From: an uncultured Brevinematales bacterium
Lineage (GTDB): Bacteria > Spirochaetota > Brevinematia > Brevinematales > JAOACQ01
Direction of reading: 5' to 3'
Assembly (NCBI GenBank): GCA_964392785.1
Contig: CAYMRH010000005.1
Location: forward strand, 4,778-68,777
DNA length: 64,000 nucleotides
Part shown: positions 5,218-43,261 of the stretch, one piece after another
Layout of the letters: every line of letters starts with the position of its first letter
How positions within the stretch are numbered: the stretch's first letter is position 1
Notes under the pieces: generated by a model
Told to the model about the DNA's origin: nothing
The model's database searches: none
The model's input: the letters and a program-made list of their open reading frames with translations, nothing else
Program-made: the position numbers and the translations under genes

Positions 5218-7959
5218 ATGAAAAAAAAACCCCTAAAAGGGTTTGAATTTATAGGAAAAAACGGGGATTTTAAGCTTAAAAACCCTGAAAACAGCAGTTA
5301 TTTGTATTTCCCTTTGGCAAATGAAGCCGGTTTAATGAGTTCCATCACTCCCGCGCTGAACGGGGATGTCAAAACGGGTCAAAACTCGTTTCTGACTGAG
5401 CCGGTATCTTCAGAGAACCTTCATAACAACCGTTCGTCCCGTAATTTCTGGTTTTTTGTCCACGGCCGGAAGACCGCGTGGTCCGCGGCGGGGGAATCCG
5501 CCGCGCAGAAGGCCGCCCGCGTGCCGGGAGACGGAAAATCCGGAGAACAGGCCGTTGTGGAAGCGGGCATGCTCTGGCACGAGGTGACCCGGGAAAACAG
5601 GAAACTGGGCTTAAAGGCCCAGATCGAAAATTTTGTACCTGTATCTCAGGACACCGTTGAACTGATGCGCGTGACGGTCACCAACACCGGGCGCAAATCC
5701 GTGAAACTCACCCCCACCGCGGCGGTCCCCCTCTACGGCCGTTCCGCGGACAATATCCGCGACCACCGTCACGTGACGTCTTTACTGCACAGGGTCCGGA
5801 CAGTGAAAAACGGAGTGGCCGTCACTCCCACCATGTGTTTTGATGAACGCGGCCACACGGTGAACGGGATCACTTACGGGGTGTACGGCGCGGAAGGCGA
5901 CGGGACGCTCCCCGCGGGTTTCTTTCCGGTGACGGAGGACTTCATAGGCGAGGGCGGGTCATTCGACTGGCCGGAAAAAATTGTCGTGAACGCTCTGGAC
6001 GTGATGCCGTCCGGAAAACGGTTCGACGGGTTCGAGGCCATGGGCGCCATCCGGTTCCGGGACGTTGTTCTGCGGCCGGGCCAGAGCCGTTCGTACGTGC
6101 TGGCGCTGAGCGTGGAACAGCCCGGCCGCAAGGCCCCGCTGAAATACCTGGACGACCGCGCTTTTGAGAAGGCGCTTTCGGACAACAAAAAATTCTGGTC
6201 CGCCAAAACGGACAGCCTGACTTTTTCGGGGGCAGACCCCGACTTTGACAGCTGGCTGAAATGGGTGACCGTCCAGCCGGTCCTGCGCCGGATCTACGGC
6301 TGTTCGTTTTTGCCCCATCACGATTACGGCCGCGGCGGCCGCGGCTGGCGGGACCTCTGGCAGGATTGCCTGGCGCTCATTGTCATGGAACCCGAAGGCG
6401 TGCGCCAGATGCTTCTCAACAACTATGGCGGCGTGCGGCTGGACGGGTCCAACGCCACCATCATCGGTTCGGCCCCGGGGGAATTCATCGCGGACCGGAA
6501 CAATATTTCCCGCGTGTGGATGGACCACGGCGCCTGGCCGTTTCTGACCACCCGGCTTTATCTGGACTGGAGCGGGGACCTGAAGTTCCTTCTGGAACAG
6601 CAGTCCTATTTCAAGGACCGCCAGTTCGGGCGTTCCCGAACCCCGGACGAAAACTGGACGCCCGAGTACGGCAACCGCCAGAAAACCGCATTCGGCGGGA
6701 TCTATACCGGGACCGTCCTGGAACATATCCTGATCCAGAACCTGGCGCCTTTTTACCATGCGGGCGAACACGGCAACATTCTGCTGGAAGGCGCGGACTG
6801 GAACGACGCGCTGGACATGGCGCGCGACCGGGGCGAAAGCGTGGCATTCACCTGCTTTTACGCCTGGAACCTGGCGGAAATCGCGAAGCTGCTCCGCGAG
6901 GCGCACAGCCGCCTGGGCCTATCCGGGATCGAGGTGGCGCGGGAAATGGTGCCGCTGTTCGATACGCTGGACAGGAAGATCGATTACGCCAGCGTGAAGG
7001 AGAAACGCGGCCTGCTGTCCCGTTATTTTGAATCCTGCCTGCACCGGGTGTCCGGGGAAAAAGCGGAACTGAATATCCTCTCGGTCGCAAAGGACCTGGA
7101 GGGCAAAGCGGAATCCCTCATGGAACAGGTCCGCAAAAACGAATGGGTCACGGACGCGCGCGGCAACGGATGGTTCAACGGCTATTACGACAACTCCGGG
7201 GCGCGCGTGGAAGGCGTCCGGGATTCCGGAAAAGTCCGGATGACGCTGACCGGACAGGTGTTTGCCGTGATGGGCGGCGTGGCGACCGGAGACCAGGCGG
7301 AACGGATTGTCCGGTCCGTGAAAAAATACCTGAAAGATCCCGCCATCGGCGGTTACCGCCTGAATACGGACTTCGGGGAGATCAAGCCCGATTTCGGGCG
7401 CGCCTTCGCGTTCGCGTTCGGCCACAAGGAAAACGGCGCCGTGTTTTCCCACATGGCGGTGATGTACGCCAACGCCCTGTACCGGCGCGGATTGGTCCGC
7501 GACGGGTGGGACGTTTTAAAATCGCTATACGACCTGTCTTCGGACTTTCCCCGCGCCCGTATCTATCCCGGTCTGCCGGAATATTTCAACGAAAAGCGCC
7601 GCGGGATGTACCACTACCTGACCGGTTCGGCCAGCTGGCTGGCGCTGACGGTCCTGTCGGAAACGTACGGCGTGAGGGGAAAACTGGGGGACCTGGAGCT
7701 GGAGCCGAAACTGCTCCCGGACCAGTTTGACGCTCAGGGGCGGGCCGGTGTCCGGGCGCTTTTCGCCGGCCGGAGGCTGGAGATCGTCTATCATGCGTCC
7801 CGGAAAGCGGGTTCGCGGCGAAACCGGATTGGGGCCGTCCGCCTGGACGGAAAACCCGCCGGGGCGCGGATCGCGGGTCATTCCGCTCTGGTCAGGCGGT
7901 CCGTTCTGGAGCGTCTGGAGCCCGGCCGGTTGCACCGCCTGGATATAGAGCTCGAATAA
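5218..7959 (+). CDS. GH94 glycoside phosphorylase, laminaribiose phosphorylase type
   Basis: SYLYFPL.NEAG, YGRSAD.IRDHRHVTSLLHR, GRGGRGWRDLWQD, GADWNDALD, ENGAVFSHM, YHYLTGSASW; closely resembles the Paenibacillus laminaribiose phosphorylase as I recall it. Confidence 0.88.
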   Translation: MKKKPLKGFEFIGKNGDFKLKNPENSSYLYFPLANEAGLMSSITPALNGDVKTGQNSFLTEPVSSENLHNNRSSRNFWFFVHGRKTAWSAAGESAAQKAARVPGDGKSGEQAVVEAGMLWHEVTRENRKLGLKAQIENFVPVSQDTVELMRVTVTNTGRKSVKLTPTAAVPLYGRSADNIRDHRHVTSLLHRVRTVKNGVAVTPTMCFDERGHTVNGITYGVYGAEGDGTLPAGFFPVTEDFIGEGGSFDWPEKIVVNALDVMPSGKRFDGFEAMGAIRFRDVVLRPGQSRSYVLALSVEQPGRKAPLKYLDDRAFEKALSDNKKFWSAKTDSLTFSGADPDFDSWLKWVTVQPVLRRIYGCSFLPHHDYGRGGRGWRDLWQDCLALIVMEPEGVRQMLLNNYGGVRLDGSNATIIGSAPGEFIADRNNISRVWMDHGAWPFLTTRLYLDWSGDLKFLLEQQSYFKDRQFGRSRTPDENWTPEYGNRQKTAFGGIYTGTVLEHILIQNLAPFYHAGEHGNILLEGADWNDALDMARDRGESVAFTCFYAWNLAEIAKLLREAHSRLGLSGIEVAREMVPLFDTLDRKIDYASVKEKRGLLSRYFESCLHRVSGEKAELNILSVAKDLEGKAESLMEQVRKNEWVTDARGNGWFNGYYDNSGARVEGVRDSGKVRMTLTGQVFAVMGGVATGDQAERIVRSVKKYLKDPAIGGYRLNTDFGEIKPDFGRAFAFAFGHKENGAVFSHMAVMYANALYRRGLVRDGWDVLKSLYDLSSDFPRARIYPGLPEYFNEKRRGMYHYLTGSASWLALTVLSETYGVRGKLGDLELEPKLLPDQFDAQGRAGVRALFAGRRLEIVYHASRKAGSRRNRIGAVRLDGKPAGARIAGHSALVRRSVLERLEPGRLHRLDIELE

Positions 7960-19076: not shown

Positions 19077-21731
19077 TTATTCCTCGAAGCGTTCGATCAC
19101 CAGTTCCACGTAGGCGCGGGACAGTTTCAGGCTCTTGGAAATGTCCTCCACCGTCCAACCCTGTTCCTTCAGGCGCAGGATGTTCTTGGCGGTGTCTTCG
19201 TCGTTCGCTCGTTCCGCGGCGGCCGTCCGTTTGGGGCCCAGTTGCCCCTCCTGGGTTTCGCGCACGCGCTCGAGCTGGGTTTCCAGCTTGGCCACCCATT
19301 CGCGCATCTTCTGGACTTTCTTGGATTCCTCGTCAATGTGGATGAGCAGGTTCTCGATGTCCGCGATCTTGTCCACCGCCACGCCGATGCGGTCCTGGTC
19401 GCTGAACAGCCGGGAAATGTTGGACTGGGCCGTCTTGACGTCCTCTTCCACCTTGCGGGAGATCTTGTTCATGGTGGTGACCTTCTCCTCGATCAGGGCC
19501 ACCTTTTCGTCCATGACCTTGATGTCGTCGCGGGAGGAGTCCACGGAGTTGATCAGGCTGTTGATGATGTCCCGCTTCTTTTCCGCGTCCGCGATCCTTT
19601 CCTTGATCTCTTCGTAGATCTTGAGCGTTTCCAGCAGCACGGCCTTCACGTCCTCCACCTTGCCGGACTGCTTGTCGATGATGGACAGGATTTCCTGGGC
19701 GTCCTTGACCTTGTCCAGGGCGGCTTTGGCGGTTTCGTGTATGGCCAGCGTTTCCTTGCGGGAGGCGGCGATATTCAGCAGGAGCCCGTCCAGCGCCTTG
19801 TGCTCGGTTTTGACGGTGTCCAGGCTCTTCATGGCTTTTTCGATGTCTTTTTTCCGGTCTTCCAGTTCCTTCAAAAACTGCGTGATCATCTTCACGTTCT
19901 TGCCGGACTTTTCCGTGAGCGTTTCGGCCTTGTCCAGGATGGCGCTTTTTTTGACCAGGCCGTCGTATCGGGTCTCGATTTCCTTGGTGCGTTTGTTCAG
20001 GTCCTTCAGGTCGGACAGCACCTGCTCCTTGAGCTCCTTTTTCTCCGCCGCCACGTCGCGCTGGATGGCCTGCAGGTCCGCTTTGGCGTTGTCCAGAGTG
20101 TTTTCCAGTTCTTCCTCCGTCTTTTTGACGTAGCCGTCAAAATTGTTGGTGATTTCGTTCACGCGCTTGGTGAATTCCGTGTCCAGGGAAGCCGCCCGGT
20201 CCTGGATGGACGCCGCGGCCTCTTCTTCGATCTGCTTGAACTGGCGCGTCAGTTCCCGGATCTTTGCGGCCACGCTTTCGTATTCCGCGGCCGACGCGGC
20301 CACGTATTTTTCAAATTCCTTGCTGAATTTTTCCTGGAATTCCGAGAGCTCCTCGTTCAGGCGCTCCTCGCTTTCCGAAGCGGCCCGCGCGGCGATTTTC
20401 CGGAATTCCTCCTCCAGGTCCTCCAGCCGGCCGGTGTGGGTCTTGTAGAATTTCTCCAGTTCCTTCTCCCGGGCCGCCATGGCGCTTTCCAGCTCCTTTT
20501 CCCGGGCGGCGGCCGCGGAGGCCAGGGATTTTTCCCCGGCGGCAATGGAGGCGGAAAGCGATTTCTCCTGGGACGCGATGGCGTTCTCCAGTTCCTTCAT
20601 GCGGCGGGTTTCGTCCGTCAGGTCTTTTTTCAGGTCGGACAGGCCCGTTTTGAGTTCGTCGATCTCCCCGAGGGCGCTTTCCTTCACTTTTTCCACGGTG
20701 GCGCGGATGGTGTTCCTGAGGTTTTCTATTCCGTATTCTTCCTTTTCCATGAGTTCCTTGGTGGTCTGGTCGAACTTTTTGCCGATGATGTCGCGGATGT
20801 TGTCCATTTTTTCCTGCGCGTCGTCCAGGCTGTCTTCCAGGGCTTTTTCCTTGTCCTGGATCTTGCGGACCACGGCGTCCAGCGACTCGCGGCCCACGGT
20901 CTTGATGTCGTCCACGGCCTGGGAGAGGTCTCCCTGCAGCTTCTGGATCATGGTCTGGAGGGATTCTTCTTTTTTGGCCACGGAAGCGACGAATTTCTCC
21001 GCTTCGTTTCCGGCGCCGGCCTTGACGGACGCCAGTTCGGACTTGAACTTGTCGGTCACGTCCTTGATGAATTTCCCGAGCCGGGCGTTCATGTCCTGGA
21101 GCGCGCCGGAATGGGCCGTGATCTTGTTCTGGAGCGAGTCCACGGCCGCCTGCTTTTTGGAGATGTCCTCCTGCAGGGCGCGGATCTGGTCGGCGGACTC
21201 GCTTTTCTGGAGCGCGATGTCGTCCAGGGTCTTTTTCATGGCGTCGTGGATGTTGTCCTCGGCCCAGACCTTGGACTGGTCAATGTCCGACTGGATCTGC
21301 CTGGCGTCCTTCTGGGCGTCCGCGATCTCCTTTTTCAGGGCGTCCACTTCCGTGGCGGCTTTGGAGATTTCCAGGAGCTTGGTCCGGACCTCCGCCATGT
21401 TGCGGTTGAAGTCCGCCGCTTCCCGGAGCTCGCCCGTCAGGGCCTGGCGGATGGCCGTGATCTGCTTGATGCTCCCGCCGATCTCCCCCATTTTGTTGTT
21501 GATGAAGGCGCTGGCCTTGTCCAGTTTTTTGAGGGCGATGTCCAGGGAAATGGTCTTGTCGCGCAGTTCCTTTTCTTTTTCCTGGAACAGGCGGTTCAGG
21601 TTCGAGACGGACGTGTTGATGAAATTCTTCAGCGTCTGCAGCTGGGTGTTGCGCTTGTCGCGCCGGCGGAAGAAGAGGATCAGGAAAACGGATATGAGGA
21701 TGGGCAGGACGATGCTGACAAAATTGACCAT
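19077..21731 (-). CDS. Membrane-anchored long coiled-coil protein (SpiroCoCo-like) with C-terminal HTH-like tail
   Basis: N-terminal TM helix, ~800 aa heptad-rich E/K/L/Q region, tail LKEQGWTVEDISKSLKLSRAYVELV. Confidence 0.75.
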   Translation of the reverse strand: MVNFVSIVLPILISVFLILFFRRRDKRNTQLQTLKNFINTSVSNLNRLFQEKEKELRDKTISLDIALKKLDKASAFINNKMGEIGGSIKQITAIRQALTGELREAADFNRNMAEVRTKLLEISKAATEVDALKKEIADAQKDARQIQSDIDQSKVWAEDNIHDAMKKTLDDIALQKSESADQIRALQEDISKKQAAVDSLQNKITAHSGALQDMNARLGKFIKDVTDKFKSELASVKAGAGNEAEKFVASVAKKEESLQTMIQKLQGDLSQAVDDIKTVGRESLDAVVRKIQDKEKALEDSLDDAQEKMDNIRDIIGKKFDQTTKELMEKEEYGIENLRNTIRATVEKVKESALGEIDELKTGLSDLKKDLTDETRRMKELENAIASQEKSLSASIAAGEKSLASAAAAREKELESAMAAREKELEKFYKTHTGRLEDLEEEFRKIAARAASESEERLNEELSEFQEKFSKEFEKYVAASAAEYESVAAKIRELTRQFKQIEEEAAASIQDRAASLDTEFTKRVNEITNNFDGYVKKTEEELENTLDNAKADLQAIQRDVAAEKKELKEQVLSDLKDLNKRTKEIETRYDGLVKKSAILDKAETLTEKSGKNVKMITQFLKELEDRKKDIEKAMKSLDTVKTEHKALDGLLLNIAASRKETLAIHETAKAALDKVKDAQEILSIIDKQSGKVEDVKAVLLETLKIYEEIKERIADAEKKRDIINSLINSVDSSRDDIKVMDEKVALIEEKVTTMNKISRKVEEDVKTAQSNISRLFSDQDRIGVAVDKIADIENLLIHIDEESKKVQKMREWVAKLETQLERVRETQEGQLGPKRTAAAERANDEDTAKNILRLKEQGWTVEDISKSLKLSRAYVELVIERFEE

Positions 21732-22017: not shown

Positions 22018-22965
22018 TCATTCCCTTATCTTTCTAAGTCTGAAAAGTGCATACAGCTTTTTGAAATTTGGTTTATCATAATCTCCTTTTATGACAACCC
22101 AACGAAAATATATATCGCCCTCCGGTTTTACGATGAAGCTTCTGATTTTAAAACCAGTAATGTATGGCGCAATATTTGCAATAGCAGGAATATCATTTAT
22201 GGTAATCAATCTGTATTCATCGTTCTTATAAACATTATGCTCGGCGTCCTCTTGGAAATCCGAAAGATATTTATTCTTAAATTTTAAAACAATATCCTTG
22301 GTCTTCTCATCTTCAATAGAATATTCTTTATAATTAGTATTAACCAAATTATATATATATGTAACATTTCCATCACCGAATAAAATTTCAGACTTATTTT
22401 TATCAAAATTGAAGTAACCATAGGTTGAAAACCAGCCCTTATTAAAGATTTGAAAGTTTGTGTTTTTTGTAAATTTGACAAGATTTCCCAGCGGAATCCA
22501 AGCGTTGCCTTCATCGTCAACATCAAAACTATATGGGTAGTGAAATATTCCACTATTTTCACTATATAAAAAATTGCTGGTCTTAACCATAGGCTCCAGA
22601 ACATACTCATATCCATTCGGCAATCTGCCAATATAAAGCCTTTCGCCCACATTAAAACTGTCTACAAAATTATATATATTGTTATAATAGACATCCCTTG
22701 TTTTCCAGGTACGACCCGAGCCCACCCCTTTCTCCCATTGTTCGTTATAAATCCTGAATTCCCTTTTCCCTTCGAACTTCTGAACCTCGCTGCTTTTTAC
22801 ACTTGTTAATATCTTTTTATCTCCAAGCGCTTTATAAACCTTGATCGCCTCATCCGTCGTCAGCTCTTCCTTGGGCAACTTTAATAGCACGGACAAATCG
22901 CGCTCTTCAGCGCTCCAGGCGTTGACGCAAATCAGCAGGAGTAAAATGGCGGTCATTCTGGTCAT
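22018..22965 (-). CDS. Secreted hypothetical protein, AT-rich
   Basis: Signal peptide MTRMTAILLLLICVNAWSA; body about 30% GC by spot counts. Confidence 0.75.
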   Translation of the reverse strand: MTRMTAILLLLICVNAWSAEERDLSVLLKLPKEELTTDEAIKVYKALGDKKILTSVKSSEVQKFEGKREFRIYNEQWEKGVGSGRTWKTRDVYYNNIYNFVDSFNVGERLYIGRLPNGYEYVLEPMVKTSNFLYSENSGIFHYPYSFDVDDEGNAWIPLGNLVKFTKNTNFQIFNKGWFSTYGYFNFDKNKSEILFGDGNVTYIYNLVNTNYKEYSIEDEKTKDIVLKFKNKYLSDFQEDAEHNVYKNDEYRLITINDIPAIANIAPYITGFKIRSFIVKPEGDIYFRWVVIKGDYDKPNFKKLYALFRLRKIRE

Positions 22966-23010
22966 AACATGCCCCCTTTTTGGCAGTAGATTGGGTTTTA
23001 TGTGCTTTTG

Positions 23011-23287
23011 CCCGGCCCTTCGATACACGGCCCGGTGGCTGAGTGCCCAGCTCCTGCGTGCAGGGGCTGGGTGTATCGAAGCCCGGGCCGCACACAGCCA
23101 CCGGGATTTTGCAGCGGCCTCGACTTCGGCCCCTCGGTAGTGCTGCTGGACGAGGAAGCCGTAAACCCGTTCGGCTGAGCTCAGGGCATCGCTCGGGGAC
23201 CGAAGTCTCGGCCGAACCGGTCGTCGAGTTCACCGCTCCCTGCTTTGCCGGACTACCGAGACGCCGGTGAGGCCGAAGTTGAGGCCG
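23011..23287. repeat. Cluster of nested and interleaved REP-like palindromes
   Basis: CTTCGATACAC/GTGTATCGAAG (23018/23071), CCCGGTGGCTG/CAGCCACCGGG (23031/23095), and triple-nested inverted repeat 23115-23287. Confidence 0.85.
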
Positions 23288-23530
23288 TCATTCACTTCTT
23301 CAAATAATATATCCTTTTCTTCTTCGCTTTCAATTTCAATTCTGCTTCATTCTCCTCTATCAGGGCTTTCTTCTTATCGTGACTCCAACCCTGAACCTGC
23401 TTCTCTCTTTTAAAAGCTGTCTTTATTGATTGATAATATTCCCAATAAACCAATTTTACCGGTCTTCGTTTCGCAGTATATCGGGCACCTCTGTCTTCAG
23501 AAGTTTCAACCCCTTTTCTAAAAACCAGCG

Positions 23531-23577
23531 CGGTCCCTGAGTGATTTTCCGCGTCAGCGGAAAATTGTATCGAAGGG
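23531..23577 (-). repeat. REP-like element inserted in frame in the GIY-YIG gene
   Basis: Minus strand CCCTTCGATACA-ATTTTCCGC-tgac-GCGGAAAAT-CACTCAGGGACCG. Confidence 0.85.
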
Positions 23578-23621
23578 CCGCCATTATGCTCCTCGAGACG
23601 TCTTTCCAAATCCCTGTCGGT

Positions 23622-23641
23622 CCCTGAGCGGAGTCGAAGGG
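23622..23641 (-). repeat. 20 nt REP-like element causing the GIY-YIG frameshift
   Basis: Minus strand CCCTTCGACTCCGCTCAGGG directly after codons YTG. Confidence 0.85.
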
Positions 23642-23760
23642 GCCCGTGTAATATGACCCGTCTGAGCATTCCACTATGTACATATACGGCATATCATCCT
23701 CTTACTAATTTTGTGCCGCCTGATCAAGCTTAAGTAGTTGGGAAAACCGCGGCCAAGCCG

Positions 23761-23864
23761 TCGCCCTGACGGTTCGACGAAAGCGGTTGGTGAGCCTGTC
23801 GAACCACACCGCGGCGGCCGTGTCGAAGGGTCGAAGCGGTCGAGGGGCGCTGCGTCTCCGTGGC
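23761..23864. repeat. Nested REP-like cluster upstream of the GIY-YIG gene
   Basis: CCCTGA (23764)...TGTCGAAGGG (23821) enclosing GGTTCGAC/GTCGAACC and GGTGAGCCTGTCGAACC. Confidence 0.8.
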
Positions 23865-23869
23865 AGCCA

Positions 23870-24322
23870 TCAAACCAGCCTGACGATCACCGCCACAAGT
23901 GCGCCCCACGCGCCGCCGGCAACCACTTCCAGGATGGAGTGTCCCTTGAACTGCGGGATGTTTTTGGGAACGGGGATGCGGTTCTTTTTGGCGAGCGCCC
24001 GGGTGAGGGTGATGTTGATCTCCACCGTCTTGCGGAGCTTGATGATGTCGTAGATCAGGATGCCGGCCATGACCACGGCCAGGCCAAAGAGCGAACTGGA
24101 AAAACCCGATTCCAGGCCAATGCCCACCGTCACGCCCGTGATGAAGGCGGTGTGCGCGGACGGGATGTCCCCGTAATCCGCGAACTTCCGGATGTCCGGC
24201 GGCTTGCCCCGGAACACGGGCAGGAAAATCTTGAAAACCTGGGACGACACCTGCGCGATGATCGCCGCCAAAAAGGGTTTGTTCAGGAGAACTTTGAATA
24301 CGTTGAAATCCGTGCCGTTCAT
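23870..24322 (-). CDS. Divergent PAP2 family (DUF212) membrane protein
   Basis: G.IPSAHTA, ILIYD...LR, GH...EVVAG. Confidence 0.85.
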   Translation of the reverse strand: MNGTDFNVFKVLLNKPFLAAIIAQVSSQVFKIFLPVFRGKPPDIRKFADYGDIPSAHTAFITGVTVGIGLESGFSSSLFGLAVVMAGILIYDIIKLRKTVEINITLTRALAKKNRIPVPKNIPQFKGHSILEVVAGGAWGALVAVIVRLV

Positions 24323-38641: not shown

Positions 38642-41503
38642 ATGACGGCCAGACTTTTCCTCGCTCCGTTTGCGGCGCTGATGCTTTTCCTGCCCGTTGT
38701 CATCCATCCGTTCGGGAAAAACAAGGTGGTCTATCACTCCCACGACTGGTCGGTGCTGGAGACGGCGCATTTCCGGATCTACCTGACCGCGGAGACCGCC
38801 CCGCAGTCCAACAGGATCGCGGACCTGTCGGAGAATATTTTTGACCGTTACGCGGTCCTTCTGGAATTCACGCCGCGGGACAAGATCCGCCTGATGATCT
38901 ATCCCAACCCCGTGGATTTCCAGCAGAACAACATCGTGGACTGGATCGGGCCCGGCACGGGGGGCTTTACGGAATTCGTCAAGGGTCGCGTGGTCCTGCC
39001 GTATTCCGCCCACGCCACGGATTTTGAACACGTCCTGTCCCACGAGATCCACCACGCGTTCCAGGGGCATATCTGGGGGCGCGGGGTTTTCTCGGTGTAC
39101 ACGGTGCGGGACATTGCCATCCCGCTCTGGATGATCGAGGGCATGACGGAATACAATTCCATTGGCGTGGACCCGGAAGCGGAAATGGTGGTGGCCGACG
39201 GCGTTCTGAACGGCGTCCTGCCCTCGCTCATGAAACTGTCCTACCTGGGGCTCCTGGCGCGCGAGGATTATTTTTACGTCTATAAACAGGGTCAGCTGTT
39301 CTACGACTGGATCACGCGCGAATACGGCCAGGACGTCATGGCCCGGCTGAACCGGTCCATAGCGGAACTGCGTGAAATGGACGCCGTGCTCACGAACGTG
39401 TTCGGGAAAACGCTCCCGGAATTGAACGCCGGCTTTTTTGACCACCTGCGCAAGCGCTATATGCCCGGCATTTCCAACCTGGTGTCCGTGGAACTGGCGG
39501 CGGAAAAAATCCTGAAAGAAGACAGCGCTTTCAACATGAATCCCGTGAGCCTGGGGTCCAACCGGGTGGCGTTCGTGAGCGACCGCCGGATTTACCCGTC
39601 CGTGCTGATATACGACCGGGACCGGGATTCCCTGGACACGGCCGTGAAAGGCGGTTTTGACGAGGAATTTCTCGAGTTCCAGTACGGGCGCAGAAACCAT
39701 CTGTCCGTGAGCACGAACGGACTTCTCTGTTTCGTGAGCCGCAGCGGGGACCGGGACGCGATCCACCTATACGACCTGAAGAAACGGAGGGCGCGCCGCG
39801 TGGACCTGCCGTTCCGCGTGATCCATTCCCCGGATATTTCCCCGGACGGCCGCCGGATCGTGTTTGCCGCCACCGAAAACGGACGGATGGACATTTTCCT
39901 GCATGACCGCGAAAACGGGAAAACCCTGAAAATTACGGACGACGAATTTTACAACACGCAGCCCCGGTTTTTCGGCTCCAACCGGATTGTCCTGGCTTCC
40001 AACCGGCGGACGGGTTCCGGCAGCGCGGAAATGGACCTGCTGGTTTACGACCTGGAGCGCGGCGAGTTCACGCTCCTTCTGGACACGGGGGCTTCGGAAG
40101 AATATCCGGCCGTGTCGCCGGACGGTAAACTGCTCGCGTTCATCCGGCAGGACGTGCATCCGTCCCTCATGATCTACGATCCGGCGCGGAATATTCTTTA
40201 CCGCGAACTGGTGCCCACGGGCGGAGTGTTCGCGCCCAACTTTACGGAAAAGGGCACGGTCCTTCTGTCCGCCTATCACCGCAGGACCTACAACATTTAC
40301 GAATACAAACCGGAGTACCGCGACCGGTGGACGAATTTTACCGTAACCGCGCGCTTTTCAGCCGCCGCGCCCGCAGCGGCGGCGGTCCCCGCCCCCGCCC
40401 GGACGAACACCGTGACACCCTATTTCCCGGAATTTTCGCTGGACAGTTTTTTCGGCGGTTTCATGCTCAACACGTCCCTGGGCATGGCGGCGCTGGGCAT
40501 GCTCCGGTTTTCGGACATGATGGGGGACCACCGCTTCCAGCTCCTGATGGACACCGCCATCCTTCTCACGGGAAACTTCCTGGAATACCTGAACGCCGAT
40601 CTTTCCTACTTCAACTTCCGTTACCGCCACAATTTCGGTTTCCGCGTTTTCCATTACAGCAATTATTTTTACGAATTTTCCACCTTCCAGGAATTTTATT
40701 CCATGGAACGGGCCTACCATACCACCTACGGGGGCTTCGCGCTGTACGCTTTTCCGTTCACCACGTTTGACAGGATCCAGGCCGAAGTGGGCTACCGCGG
40801 CTTTTCCTACGCGTCCAACGTGGTCTGGACGGGCTCCAACTACACCTACGACCTTTCCTACAGGAGCCGCAGCGTCGTTTCCGCCGCCTACGTTCACGAC
40901 TCCACGCTGAATGACGTGACCGGCCCCGTGGACGGCATCCGCTACGAATTTCTGGCGGTCAAGTCCTTTCCGCTGCTGTCCGATTCCCTGGATTACCAGA
41001 AGTTCGTGATGGATTTCAGGAGTTATTTCCTGATCACGCCCGGGTATTCCGTGGCCCTGCGCGGTGTGGCCGGTTACCAGTTCGGGCCGGACCAGGCGGA
41101 AACGCCTTTCTACGTGGGCGGCTTCAACTCCGTGCGCGGTCACGATCTGTGGGGCAGCCGCGGGGACGCCATGTTTCTCTTCAACTTCGAACTGCGCGTG
41201 CCGTTCATCCGGGACTGGACGCTCGGGTTCCCTTTCCCGATCCGTCTGCCCACGGTGTGGGGAGCGCTGTTCTGGGATTTTGGAAGCGCGTGGCAAACGG
41301 ACCGGCCGTACGTGTTCGGGGAACCGGGTCCCGACGAAATCTGGCGGTTCCGGGATTTCAAGAGCGGTTTCGGATTCGGGTTCCGGCTGGTGCTTTTGCC
41401 CGGCATCAAGTTCATGGTGGACCTGGCCGCGCCGTTTGACGGCGCCGTGTTTCCCGACACCTCAAGATGGAAGAGCTTCTGGTTTATCGGGATTGATTTT
41501 TAA
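38642..41503 (+). CDS. Omp85-superfamily protein with N-terminal zinc peptidase (MA-like) and TolB/PD40 propeller domains
   Basis: HEIHH and P.WMIEG.TEY; SPDGRRIVF/SPDGK repeats; C-terminal barrel with FYVGG..SVRG and G.GFR, ending in Phe. Confidence 0.82.
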   Translation: MTARLFLAPFAALMLFLPVVIHPFGKNKVVYHSHDWSVLETAHFRIYLTAETAPQSNRIADLSENIFDRYAVLLEFTPRDKIRLMIYPNPVDFQQNNIVDWIGPGTGGFTEFVKGRVVLPYSAHATDFEHVLSHEIHHAFQGHIWGRGVFSVYTVRDIAIPLWMIEGMTEYNSIGVDPEAEMVVADGVLNGVLPSLMKLSYLGLLAREDYFYVYKQGQLFYDWITREYGQDVMARLNRSIAELREMDAVLTNVFGKTLPELNAGFFDHLRKRYMPGISNLVSVELAAEKILKEDSAFNMNPVSLGSNRVAFVSDRRIYPSVLIYDRDRDSLDTAVKGGFDEEFLEFQYGRRNHLSVSTNGLLCFVSRSGDRDAIHLYDLKKRRARRVDLPFRVIHSPDISPDGRRIVFAATENGRMDIFLHDRENGKTLKITDDEFYNTQPRFFGSNRIVLASNRRTGSGSAEMDLLVYDLERGEFTLLLDTGASEEYPAVSPDGKLLAFIRQDVHPSLMIYDPARNILYRELVPTGGVFAPNFTEKGTVLLSAYHRRTYNIYEYKPEYRDRWTNFTVTARFSAAAPAAAAVPAPARTNTVTPYFPEFSLDSFFGGFMLNTSLGMAALGMLRFSDMMGDHRFQLLMDTAILLTGNFLEYLNADLSYFNFRYRHNFGFRVFHYSNYFYEFSTFQEFYSMERAYHTTYGGFALYAFPFTTFDRIQAEVGYRGFSYASNVVWTGSNYTYDLSYRSRSVVSAAYVHDSTLNDVTGPVDGIRYEFLAVKSFPLLSDSLDYQKFVMDFRSYFLITPGYSVALRGVAGYQFGPDQAETPFYVGGFNSVRGHDLWGSRGDAMFLFNFELRVPFIRDWTLGFPFPIRLPTVWGALFWDFGSAWQTDRPYVFGEPGPDEIWRFRDFKSGFGFGFRLVLLPGIKFMVDLAAPFDGAVFPDTSRWKSFWFIGIDF

Positions 41504-41583
41504 GGGCGCGGCGCGGCGGAATCTGATCAATTGGAAAAGCGAAATCATGAAACGGGCCGCGTTGTTAAGGAAATGAGGTGAAT

Positions 41584-42651
41584 ATGAGAAGAGTGTTTCT
41601 TTCCAGTCTGGCCGCGATGATTTCGATTACATCCTGTATTCACGCGGAAGAACAGGCCAAGGAAAAGTTTGACAAGGAATTGACCCAGTTGTTTGAAAAA
41701 GAAGCGCAAAAAAGGAAAGGCATGGTCTATTTTGGCAAACACGCCAGGTATTCTGAAGACGGCAGATATATCGTATTTCAGGTTGTCAGGAATAATAAGG
41801 AAATATTGTGTCTCTTTGATTATAAGGCAAATCGATTGATTCGATATTTTTCTGGCACATATGATAGGTTAAGGTACCCAATATTTAGCAGGTCTGGAGA
41901 AATATTGTTTAATGCAAGTTATTTAATTGAGCAGGGGCGGCCCGGAAAGGGTATAACGTTTATTAGAACAATTGATATGCAGGCAAGTAATATAAGGACG
42001 ATTATGAAAAAGACAAATACGGCGATTATATCACCAACAATTTATGCAGATGGTAAAAGTGTTATTTCTATTCAGTACAATAACGAGAACCCTGAACGGA
42101 TATTTGAATACGATCTTGTTAATGGTCGTGAAAGAATGGTGTTAGACAAGGAGTTAGGCGAAATCTCGGAACTTGTTGCGTTGAATGACAATAGAACCAT
42201 CCTGTTTACAGCCGGCGGGAGCCGGGCGTTTGGGGGAGGGGAGTTGTACTCTTATAGCCTGAATACTGGCCAATTGAAAAAAATCCGAGAATTTGCCAAG
42301 TTGGTATATTCGAATAAATATTCAAACGAAATACTGATATACGATTATGATCAGGAATCAAACGCGGGATTATATCGGTTAAATATTCAAAATGGGCGCA
42401 GCAAGAAGGTGTGTAATATTACAAATCGCGGCAATTGGTTTTATGATTTCAGTCTTTCCCCGGACGGGAAAAAGGTGATGTATATCAGCGCCATCAGCAT
42501 CAGCATGGCCAGCAAGACAAATCTGATCATGGAAATGAATCTGGACGGCAGCGGTCTCCGCTCGCTGCCCGTCGATCTGGGAAAACTGGATCAAGTCCCG
42601 GTCGTCAATATCGATCAGGGCCTGGATATCGACAAGTATATCAAGCAGTAA
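41584..42651 (+). CDS. Exported TolB-like beta-propeller protein, AT-rich core
   Basis: Signal peptide; YSEDGRYIVF, P.FSRSG, LSPDGKKVMY repeats. Confidence 0.72.
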   Translation: MRRVFLSSLAAMISITSCIHAEEQAKEKFDKELTQLFEKEAQKRKGMVYFGKHARYSEDGRYIVFQVVRNNKEILCLFDYKANRLIRYFSGTYDRLRYPIFSRSGEILFNASYLIEQGRPGKGITFIRTIDMQASNIRTIMKKTNTAIISPTIYADGKSVISIQYNNENPERIFEYDLVNGRERMVLDKELGEISELVALNDNRTILFTAGGSRAFGGGELYSYSLNTGQLKKIREFAKLVYSNKYSNEILIYDYDQESNAGLYRLNIQNGRSKKVCNITNRGNWFYDFSLSPDGKKVMYISAISISMASKTNLIMEMNLDGSGLRSLPVDLGKLDQVPVVNIDQGLDIDKYIKQ

Positions 42652-42743
42652 TGGGTTTTATTCATCCGTTTTGCCATACAGTGATGGCAATACACTGACA
42701 CCCCTCGTGGCTCGGGTCGGGCCCCGGTTCCCCTCGGAATCTG

Positions 42744-42772
42744 TTGACTTTTTCCCCCCTCAAAAATAGAAT
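42744..42772 (+). promoter_or_regulatory. Promoter of the CvpA-like gene
   Basis: TTGACT-17 nt-TAGAAT. Confidence 0.65.
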
Positions 42773-42805
42773 AAAGCAGTCAGGATTACTTGCCCGGAGG
42801 TTGGT

Positions 42806-43261
42806 ATGTCATCGTCCCAGGTCATTTTCCTGCTGGTGTTTATCGTCGTTTTGTCTGTTTTCGCCTATATCAATACGCGGGAAGGGTTTCTCCGTTCGCT
42901 CAGTTCGCTTTTGCGGCTGGTGATCCCGATGCTTTTGTCCGGCATCATCGTGAAGATTTCCCAGCTGATCTCCCGGGTGGAACTGGTGTCCTACATCATC
43001 GGCGGCATCGGGACCGTGATCTTTTTCCTGGTGCTGAAAAACGCGATCAAAAATCCCGAGAAAAAGAAGGTCAACATCGTGGGCCACTTCCTGGGTTTTC
43101 TGGTGGGCATTGTGGAAGGCTGGCTGGTGAGCGGCGTGATCGTGCTTTACCTGGACTTTTTCAAGGTGCCGGAACTGAGCAAAATTCTGGCGCCGGCGTT
43201 CTACCAGTCCATTGTCCTGCCCGTGAAGTGGATCCTGTTCCTGGATTTTATCAGGTTCTGA
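42806..43261 (+). CDS. CvpA (colicin V production) family membrane protein
   Basis: GFLRSL.SL; 4 TM helices; LGF.VG..EG. Confidence 0.65.
   Translation: MSSSQVIFLLVFIVVLSVFAYINTREGFLRSLSSLLRLVIPMLLSGIIVKISQLISRVELVSYIIGGIGTVIFFLVLKNAIKNPEKKKVNIVGHFLGFLVGIVEGWLVSGVIVLYLDFFKVPELSKILAPAFYQSIVLPVKWILFLDFIRF

Follow-up and report, generated by a model that had tools for sequence, protein, structure and literature searches.

In a 64,000-nt stretch of DNA from an uncultured Brevinematales bacterium (contig CAYMRH010000005.1), hereafter called the window, a small gene encoding a UPF0213-like GIY-YIG nuclease is both surrounded and interrupted by short hairpin-forming repeat units. We interpret this locus as a decaying Ssn-like cassette, that is, a UPF0213-like GIY-YIG gene together with its cognate hairpin repeats, which was acquired horizontally by the Brevinematales bacterium; we assign this interpretation a probability of about 0.7. 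The Ssn proteins are site-specific single-stranded DNA (ssDNA) nucleases that cut hairpins flanking their own genes (Chenal et al. 2025, Nat Commun 16:2388, PMC11893778), so the statement in an initial annotation of the window that no mechanism had been characterised for such a pairing is outdated. The locus has a nuclease gene with two internal units and further units on both sides, the units belong to one family whose stems covary, units of this family cluster around related nuclease genes in other genomes, and they also lie in frame within unrelated protein-coding genes.

Units of the family are built alike: between the two strands of an outer stem, whose sequence varies, lie CTGAG, an inner hairpin that also varies, and TCGAAG, in that order. 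In the short form (24 nt), the inner hairpin is often just C-GNA-G, and in the long form it is 10-40 nt in length. The features of the gene itself are listed below, where L numbers designate genome loci and P numbers homologous proteins.

23292..23692, minus strand: disrupted GIY-YIG (UPF0213-like) nuclease gene (open reading frames and translation, PF01541, homologue identity, PDB match, GC content)
23697..23703, minus strand: ribosome-binding site AAGAGGA, 4 nt 5' of the ATG at 23692 (direct sequence reading)
23692 to 23642, minus strand: frame a, MPYMYIVECSDGSYYTG
23618..23641, minus strand: insert 1, a 24-nt short-form unit, CCCTTCGACTCCGCTCAGGGACCG on the sense strand and CGGTCCCTGAGCGGAGTCGAAGGG on the plus strand, replacing the conserved Ser codon (alignment with L327 and L329)
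23610..23617, minus strand: presumed site of a 1-nt deletion, ACAGGGAT, with a T missing between 23615 and 23614 (alignment; L329 has GGA AGC ACA TGG GAT TTA)
about 23617 to 23292, minus strand: frame b, ..DLERRLEEHNGG..RGARYTAKRRPVKLVYWEYYQSIKTAFKREKQVQGWSHDKKKALI..
23493..23576, minus strand: extra in-frame loop of 28 aa (84 nt), PSIQFSADAENHSGTALVFRKGVETSED, between EEHNGG and RGARYT (protein and DNA alignments)
23530..23581, plus strand: core of insert 2, a canonical long-form unit in antisense to the gene, translated in frame as GPSIQFSADAENHSGT (covariance model, DNA fold, exact core match)

The small, AT-rich gene (minus strand, 23692-23292) is split over two open reading frames (ORFs): 23692-23456 begins with MPYMYIVECSDGSYYTG and continues as nonsense, and 23669-23292 contains ..DLERRLEEHNGG..RGARYTAKRRPVKLVYWEYYQSIKTAFKREKQVQGWSHDKKKALI.. 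The protein matches PF01541 with an E-value of 8e-13 (48.9 bits against a cutoff of 22.6), and the residues of the GIY-YIG superfamily, Y5, Y15, G17, R25, H29 and E90, are invariant alignment columns. Its ribosome-binding site (AAGAGGA) and the C-terminal catalytic region (AFKREKQVQGW) are intact, as the initial annotation had also observed. When the frame is repaired, the protein has 2659 database homologues (E up to 0.001), which are typically about 93-103 aa in length; the 29 best of these, once aligned, are 52-66% identical to it. A phmmer search of the PDB finds two proteins of the UPF0213 family (CDD cd10456), BH0048 (1ZG2, E 7e-15) and EF2693 (1YWL, E 3e-13), with 43-48% identity, and NCBIfam contains no model that matches the repaired protein.

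The GC content is 37-38% in the gene body, 63-70% in the immediate flanks and about 59% in the rest of the window. Since a gene of 37% GC lies in a host of about 59% GC, the cassette is taken to be horizontally acquired. A threonyl-tRNA synthetase gene 5 kb from the cassette encodes a protein 67-70% identical to Brevinematales and Brevinematia proteins. In the nearest relatives (67% identity), synteny around this synthetase gene is kept only on the far side of the cassette, so that they offer no empty site for comparison. Two other origins of the gene were considered and rejected. A GIY-YIG homing endonuclease of the I-TevI type is ruled out because the protein, about 98 aa long, has one domain and no separate DNA-binding domain. 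A phage origin was set aside as well: the relatives found in viral contigs number just 34 and are distant (full-length matches not exceeding 43% identity), and only 5 of those loci contain any unit.

The initial annotation described a 20-nt insert after Y-T-G, and the frame does break after Y-Y-T-G, with a net gain of 20 nt relative to the homologue consensus MPYMYILECxDGSYYTGSTxDLERRLxEHxxGxGANYT.., in which the S and T that follow YYTG are nearly invariant. The repair it suggested, removal of a 20-mer (23622-23641) to restore the normal spacing of the family, does not succeed: what remains is G-TDR-D, which does not match the nearly invariant S-T-(W). Alignment at the DNA level with the closest intact genes (L327/P0001 and L329/P0003) is fitted better by a 24-nt unit plus a 1-nt loss. 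In this alignment, the homologue sequence GGA AGC ACA TGG GAT TTA corresponds to GGC CCCTTCGACTCCGCTCAGGGACCG ACA -GG GAT TTG in the window, the homologues having ACA TGG GAT (Thr-Trp-Asp) at the deletion site. Thus, a 24-nt unit in place of the Ser codon (+21 nt, in frame) and the loss of one T together give the net +20 frameshift. If the T were restored in ACA(T)GGGAT, the N-terminal frame would read YYTG-PFDSAQGP-TWDLERRL. The insertion lies in a conserved turn and is accompanied by the 1-nt loss, so the simplest view of the window copy of the gene is that of a decaying pseudogene; how the events at insert 1 were ordered is a matter of inference.

The 24-mer CCCTTCGACTCCGCTCAGGGACCG is not peculiar to this gene. 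It occurs exactly in at least 120 genome stretches from many phyla, where about 0.004 would be expected by calculation, and one exact copy is located in the 5' flank of the P0007 gene. Beyond these 24 nt, there is no conservation among the listed genome matches. We used a covariance model constructed from 70 unrelated family members, in which the window was not included, and scanned the window with filters off. The match to insert 1 (23612-23651) scores 14.5 bits (E 0.11).

A second unit, in the same orientation and in frame, is present about 40 nt downstream, as the initial annotation had recognised; however, the length of 16 aa that it assigned to the inserted peptide is wrong, as the loop comprises 28 aa and ALVFRKGVETSEDR had been omitted. 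In the window protein, 31 residues lie between EEHN and GARYT. The canonical unit with its outer stem occupies 52 nt (23530-23581) and consists of the outer stem GCGG/CCGC, then CCCTGAGTG, the inner hairpin ATTTTCCGC-GTCA-GCGGAAAAT, and then TGTATCGAAGGG. The covariance-model match at 23525-23587 reaches 51.7 bits (E 6e-11), and the unit folds as DNA at -15.8 kcal/mol (z -4.0). The rest of the loop is about 35 nt of AT-rich sequence, the 3' end of which (..TSED-R) resembles the extended loop of P0003, P0002 and P0004 (..TED-R, ..LED-R). A long unit in a Bacteroidia metagenome-assembled genome (MAG), L084 1111-1167, has the inner stem ATTTTCCGC...GCGGAAAAT identical to that of the in-gene unit and a longer loop, which hints that the two share a recent source.

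The site of insert 2 appears to be a permissive one. In 102 of 113 homologues the loop has 3 residues, and in the other 11 it is extended. Four of these extended loops were read at the DNA level: those of P0002, P0004 and P0007 contain recognisable units of the type present locally, in one orientation or the other, and P0017 has a degenerate remnant. In P0007, the loop consists of a degenerate copy of the 24-mer and cgttccCTGAGCGGAGTCGAAGggaacaatg, a pair of units that recurs in its 3' flank. In P0002 and P0004, it is GGTCATYGAGTAG-hairpin-CGTATCGAGATGACC, a variant of their own flanks that is opposite in orientation to the window unit. In the AlphaFold model of P0004, the insert (residues 33-51) lies between helix 1 and strand 3 and has a predicted local distance difference test score (pLDDT) below 50, against more than 90 in the core. 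The initial annotation had asked whether intact homologues natively contain the two segments. The closest intact homologue, P0001 (L327), contains neither, and the 11 extended homologues are extended at the second site. Both inserts are regarded as derived insertions because they are absent from this closest intact homologue.

Outside the gene, units and palindromes are arranged as follows.

23764..23847, plus strand: degenerate units of the 5' flank (direct repeats, direct sequence reading)
23764-23779, plus strand: degenerate unit CCCTGACGGTTCGACG
23785-23810, plus strand: degenerate unit GGTTGG-TGAGCCTGTCGAA-CCACACC
23820-23847, plus strand: degenerate unit GTGTCGAAGGGTCGAAGCGGTCGAGGGG
23108..23290, no strand assigned: GC-rich imperfect palindrome directly 3' of the gene, with arms CTCGGTAGTGC../..GCACTACCGAG and GGTGAACTCGACGACCGG/CCGGTCGTCGAGTTCACC (inverted repeats, L327 alignment)
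23028..23090, plus strand: long-form unit of the 3' flank, with outer stem GGCCCGG/CCGGGCC, CTGAGTG, a GC-rich inner hairpin and TGTATCGAAG (covariance model, DNA fold)
23014..23028, plus strand: inverted half-unit GGCCCTTCGATACAC, partner of 23071-23081 (inverted repeats)

The proposal that the inserts belong to the repeat family flanking the gene is borne out: both in-gene units and the 3'-flank unit share CTGAG..TCGAAG and have the same orientation, and their inner hairpins are completely different in sequence. The 3'-flank unit matches the covariance model at 23039-23081 (23.9 bits, E 5e-4) and folds at -22.8 kcal/mol (z -3.5). Both long units fold as ssDNA, with an internal loop separating the outer stem from the inner hairpin. 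In the whole 64-kb window, there are exactly three covariance-model matches, all at the nuclease locus. The inverted half-unit at 23014-23028 is a doublet remnant, and the degenerate units of the 5' flank are comparable to consensus short forms such as CTGAGCCTGTCGAAG.

The palindrome at 23108-23290 (about 140-180 nt) is not a CTGAG/TCGAAG unit. Its counterpart is found at L327 383-520, the locus of the closest homologue, which comes from another sample; the window copy has extra CTGAG/CTCAG material in the middle. Among the loci scanned, only L327, L328 and L070 contain this palindrome motif, and no terminator-like site was found.

The long core, CCCTGAGTG-N10-40-TGTATCGAAGGG, is found exactly in at least 120 genome stretches, compared with about 8 expected by calculation, and the listed matches span Dependentiae, Dehalococcoidia, Fibrobacterota, Bacteroidota, Proteobacteria, Actinobacteria, Armatimonadota and others. 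These matches contain 118 different inner segments, 95 of which form at least 4 base pairs, as against 1.7% of shuffles. In an alignment of 70 units, the covariation of the inner stem is 0.315 compared with 0.118 in shuffled data, a value reached by none of 500 shuffles, and all 7 inner-stem pairs have changed on both sides. Outer stems with at least 4 Watson-Crick pairs are formed by 53% of units, compared with 4.7% when partners are shuffled, and involve 42 different 4-mers. In 163 of 168 units, the closing pair of the inner hairpin is C-G or G-C, which in short forms closes 2-3 bases. The commonest centres of the short form are CGGAG, CGAAG and CGTAG, that is, C-GNA-G, and loops of this kind are a class of unusually stable DNA mini-hairpins. 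Conservation of the motif is unusually high: 21-24 invariant bases are common to Bacteroidota, Cyanobacteria, Chloroflexota, Spirochaetota, Fibrobacterota, Dependentiae, Patescibacteria and Proteobacteria. In some genomes, for example Dehalococcoidia and Babeliales MAGs, dispersed units occupy many separate sites.

Long units are frequently paired head to head, as inverted doublets with a spacing of 40-100 nt, their ccgctcg/ccgcatg ends pointing inward and no gene lying between them. Examples of this arrangement, which resembles REPINs, the paired form of repetitive extragenic palindromic (REP) sequences, are L005, L014, L017, L022 (4363-4483), L101 and L109.

Known structured RNAs (Rfam 15, including hammerhead, twister, pistol and HEARO) were ruled out as an identity of the units, as no match was found. 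Rfam gave no match in the window at gathering thresholds; with the limit relaxed to E 10 there was still none in 22900-23950, and 14 unit-rich loci yielded only tRNAs. A likeness of the junction to hammerhead, k-turn or T-loop motifs, noted by eye, was dropped in view of the mixed orientation and the DNA-typical loops. A full-text literature search with six short-form 16-mers found no paper, and 8-12-mers gave only chance matches to primers.

The association between nuclease and repeats was examined at 80 genome loci encoding homologues, out of at least 591 confirmed. The long-form covariance model, when run on 86 homologue loci, produced few matches, most loci having short or variant forms; for this reason, units at these loci were counted by the pattern CTGAG-N2-45-TCGAAG, with shuffles as controls. 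The pairing that the initial annotation supposed is real: a unit is found within 300 nt of the gene at 60 of the 80 loci. In total, these loci contain 258 units, compared with 6.4 in shuffles, and the density falls from 4.3 per kb within 100 nt of the gene to 0.12 per kb beyond 2 kb, a 35-fold difference. Upstream, the unit closest to the gene points in the sense direction (+) at 35 of 48 loci; downstream, the closest one is antisense (-) at 30 of 42. The arrangement is an inverted bracket around the gene, like that of an insertion sequence (IS). Moreover, the GIY-YIG protein is the only one that recurs across lineages beside long units.

The clearest example of such an IS-like cassette is L063, where a GIY-YIG pseudogene (6590-7021), which has frameshifts and no internal unit, is bracketed exactly by two inverted long-form units. 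A further observation concerns annotated protein ends. P0005, P0007, P0015, P0017, P0018, P0044 and P0071 have long C-terminal tails (..LSGVEG.., ..PEPVEG.., ..LSRAVEG..). The tail of P0007 is, at the DNA level, read-through into the flanking repeat units; the other six look alike as peptides, and their annotated ends are probably wrong.

Units are also tolerated in frame in genes that are not related to the nuclease. The 24-mer corresponds to 8 codons and is open in 5 of 6 frames. Of the listed copies that could be evaluated, 30 of 109 lie inside long ORFs, compared with 65% of random positions. In genes confirmed by Pfam, the in-frame units are read as RSLSGVEG, PFDSAQGP or LRLRSGT, as in the following cases.

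L387: unit in frame in an NAD synthetase
L409 5778-6944 and L443 2300-3502: unit RSLSGVEG in frame in a pyridoxal phosphate-dependent decarboxylase (ornithine/diaminopimelate/arginine decarboxylase-like)
L452: unit in frame in a NuoG-like protein
L433: unit in frame in the linker of an ATP-binding cassette exporter
L469: unit in frame in a UvrA-like protein

L409 and L443 are MAGs of two Geobacteraceae species that have the 24-nt unit at the same position of the decarboxylase, which points to an insertion that has been inherited and tolerated.

On the analogy of the characterised Ssn/NTS pair, in which NTS denotes the cognate hairpin repeat, the system most probably works as follows. The unit is a two-helix DNA junction, and the nuclease would recognise the folded unit on ssDNA and nick nearby. 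Units accumulate mainly in the approximately 300 nt around the nuclease gene, often as an inverted pair in the manner of an insertion sequence, and the gene, lying in the densest patch of units, would occasionally be hit itself. Units that enter the surface loop joining helix 1 to strand 3 (EHxxG^xGAxYT) are evidently tolerated and persist, as have insert 2 and the units of P0002, P0004 and P0007, with a remnant left in P0017. Insert 1, which lies in the tight, conserved YYTG-ST turn, destroys the reading frame together with the 1-nt loss. We infer both the recognition and cleavage of ssDNA by the clade of the window protein, from its likeness to Ssn, and the way in which the units spread. The simplest reading of the insert positions is survivorship, in that units in the loop are kept and others are not. 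The suggestion that self-insertion serves as a self-limiting off-switch receives no support: none of the 80 homologue loci has a unit inside the nuclease gene, the L063 pseudogene lacks one, and in the window the family is confined to one locus. Mobilisation of the units by the nuclease, which the initial annotation also suggested, is likewise unsupported.

Several results weigh against the interpretation as an Ssn-like cassette, or against parts of it. A profile of the clade scores the UPF0213 structures at 81.7 and 68.6 bits, compared with 49.8 for the SsnA-like protein of L264, the one NTS-ssnA-NTS locus recovered among the 120 tiles listed. The degenerate Ssn repeat motif, SRM (HGTCWYN(0-2)YYVSBRHN(0-5)WNVSBRGN(0-2)RNCYNB), has no match in 22900-23950 and none within 300 nt at the 80 homologue loci; as a positive control, the same pattern has 3 matches around the gene of L264. 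At 20 of the 80 loci, there is no unit within 300 nt of the gene. A nuclease gene is present in just 4 of 120 listed long-unit tiles and 4 of 120 listed 24-mer tiles; note that loci in these pattern scans are fixed 8-kb tiles, so that counts of genes beside units are lower bounds. The short in-gene unit has no significant DNA fold in its present context (z about 0). Finally, the frameshift amounts to one base, and could be an assembly error, which would leave an intact ORF with two in-frame inserts.

This last point is part of a wider question, namely whether a chimeric repeat join or a miscalled base has made an intact or in-frame gene appear broken. The contig is metagenomic and repeats can mislead assemblers, the frameshift is reduced to one missing T if insert 1 is taken as 24 nt, and the window proteins have no second copy on record for comparison. 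However, gene order and sequence are colinear with the homologues on either side of each unit, unlike in a chimera, and similar in-gene units are found in independent assemblies from other samples. We therefore consider an artefact improbable overall; it is unlikely for the inserts themselves, and the single-base indel could be one. Still less probable, and in fact the least probable of the readings considered, is that the segments belong natively to the protein, as loops specific to certain lineages, and are not repeat insertions. The 11 extended loops among 113 close homologues would accord with this, and the resemblance of the TSED-R tail to P0003, P0002 and P0004 means that part of the loop may be inherited. 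Nevertheless, 102 of the 113 have the 3-residue loop, P0001 lacks both segments, insert 1 breaks the frame, and the inserts of P0002, P0004 and P0007 differ in sequence and orientation, each matching its own flanks. In addition, the long unit is an exact match to a core whose copies in unrelated phyla are mostly found between genes, and it scores 51.7 bits on a model from which it was absent.

That the units act in transcripts, as ribozymes, k-turn-like protein-binding motifs or regulatory hairpins, is very unlikely. By sequence reading, the plus-strand junction can form CCCU/AGGG with tandem G.A/A.G pairs, in the manner of a k-turn or C/D box; the stems covary strongly, and the nearest upstream unit is usually in sense. 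Against this, Rfam returned no match even with the E limit raised to 10, most of the closest downstream units point the other way, both orientations occur inside genes, and the loops are mostly C-GNA-G, of the DNA mini-hairpin class. Moreover, the specific neighbour of the units is a DNA nuclease, whose relatives act on ssDNA only (PMC11893778). A real, if not a probable, alternative is that the units are spread in trans by another enzyme, such as a RAYT-like (REP-associated tyrosine transposase-like) transposase of the Y1/HUH type or the recombination or replication machinery, and that the GIY-YIG protein uses them only as recognition sites, for instance in restricting incoming ssDNA in the way of SsnA. 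Mobilisation by Ssn is itself only a hypothesis in the literature (PMC11893778), most units lie far from any nuclease gene, and the inverted doublets of long units are REPIN-like. On the other hand, no other protein family recurs beside units across lineages, and units cluster most strongly at the nuclease gene; such clustering fits local seeding by the cassette, although it does not identify the enzyme. A decaying, horizontally acquired Ssn-like cassette thus remains our preferred reading of the locus. A bolder extension of it, which we regard as doubtful and put forward only tentatively, is that the UPF0213-like GIY-YIG clade and the CTGAG/TCGAAG junction element form an undescribed cross-phylum system parallel to Ssn/NTS and RAYT/REP. 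In such a system, the nuclease would recognise the folded ssDNA junction and would itself copy the 24-60-nt units, which would colonise housekeeping genes and the permissive loop of its own gene in frame, element and enzyme being co-inherited.

Three other regions of the window were noted. An ORF at 22018-23028 (minus strand, likely ATG at 22966, about 315-336 aa, 23-39% GC), which has a signal-like N-terminal stretch and neither a Pfam nor an NCBIfam match, adjoins the cassette and probably belongs to the same horizontally acquired patch or to a neighbouring one. At 19077-21731 (minus strand), there is a gene for an 884-aa coiled-coil protein with a DUF6115/HTH-like (helix-turn-helix-like) C-terminal end; its fully open opposite strand is an artefact of GC-rich codons. 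A second dip in GC content (45-51%) at 41001-43000, around an ORF with PD40 repeats (41578-42651), may be another acquired segment.

The consequence for the window itself is small, namely a broken passenger gene in a horizontally acquired patch. If our interpretation is true, the class of site-specific ssDNA nucleases would have a second recognition motif, distinct in sequence from the first, and the conservation of this motif across phyla would provide ready-made pairs of enzyme and substrate. It would also explain junk peptides in translated metagenomic ORFs (..RSLSGVEG.., ..PFDSAQGP.., ..LRLRSGT..), among them the C-terminal tails found on many GIY-YIG proteins as annotated and the 8-residue inserts of genuine enzymes. 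In addition, filled and empty sites of a 24-nt element in conserved genes offer a way to ask how small repeats of the REP, Rickettsia palindromic element (RPE) or small dispersed repeat (SDR) kind move.

Among known systems, the RPEs to which the initial annotation compared the units are an apt parallel in behaviour: palindromic units are tolerated in frame within protein-coding genes, here including housekeeping genes confirmed by Pfam. The comparison concerns behaviour and not sequence. RPEs are roughly 100-150 nt in length, whereas the units here are 24 nt or about 45-60 nt and are found across phyla. The cyanobacterial SDRs, reportedly described by Elhai et al. in 2008, are said to be mobile repeats of 21-27 nt in Nostocaceae that have a hairpin core and are nested in other repeats. 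Units of the window family occur in Nostoc, Halotia, Nodosilinea and other cyanobacteria. For SDRs, neither a link to GIY-YIG proteins nor a distribution beyond Nostocaceae is reported (PMC5861425).

The likeness to REP/REPIN-RAYT systems lies in short palindromes with variable stems and conserved single-stranded parts, in inverted doublets, and in clusters at a single-copy gene for a nuclease or transposase with dispersed copies elsewhere. In contrast, the enzyme here is a GIY-YIG protein and RAYT is a Y1 HUH transposase, and REPs are extragenic, whereas the present units also lie in frame inside genes. Membership in the REP/RAYT system was rejected, as the sole recurring neighbour is GIY-YIG and there is no conserved GTAG outside the unit loops. 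With respect to the protein, the UPF0213 members BH0048 and EF2693 are the best relatives in both structure and sequence, with the same size and single-domain layout; we know of no repeat association reported for UPF0213. At the C-terminus, the clade has REKQ[VI]QGW, the SsnA-like protein has REKRIKNW, and both UPF0213 structures have (W/A)E..(V/F)K.

The closest parallel in architecture is Ssn. These are 94-aa single-domain GIY-YIG proteins (CDD cd10448), such as SsnA of N. meningitidis, whose genes are flanked by hairpin repeats (NTS; in degenerate form, SRM) that are also present in hundreds of genomic copies (PMC11893778). SsnA binds the repeat in its folded form, and its cut falls upstream of the repeat, exclusively in ssDNA and on a single strand; the authors point out the IS-like NTS-ssnA-NTS layout and a resemblance to REP/RAYT, and mobilisation by Ssn is a hypothesis (PMC11893778). 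NTS are rarely intragenic (2%), and Rickettsia is among the SRM-rich genera (PMC11893778). We also observed the exact core of the Neisseria NTS (CGTCATTCCCGCG-N3-GCGGGAATC) in Dehalococcoidia, Bacteroidota, Planctomycetota, Nitrospirota and Verrucomicrobiota, often as close inverted pairs. The window system resembles Ssn in having a single-domain GIY-YIG protein of about 95 aa, a gene bracketed in IS-like fashion by hairpin repeats of 20-50 nt, and repeats that are dispersed in many copies across phyla, with a conserved single-stranded part that orients the hairpin. The Ssn hallmark of bracketing by hairpin repeats that are also dispersed in the genome is thus seen in this clade with a different motif. 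The unit motif is CTGAG/TCGAAG at the junction of two stems, whereas the Ssn motif is GTCWY-hairpin-RNCY, and the 30 of 109 listed 24-mer copies that lie in long ORFs differ from the 2% of NTS. In pairwise comparison, the SsnA-like protein of L264 is 27-31% identical to the window protein (E 1e-9 to 1e-10). Overall, the architecture is the same as that of Ssn and the protein clade and motif are different; by analogy, we suggest that the system may work in an Ssn-like manner, and we do not claim that it is a member of Ssn.

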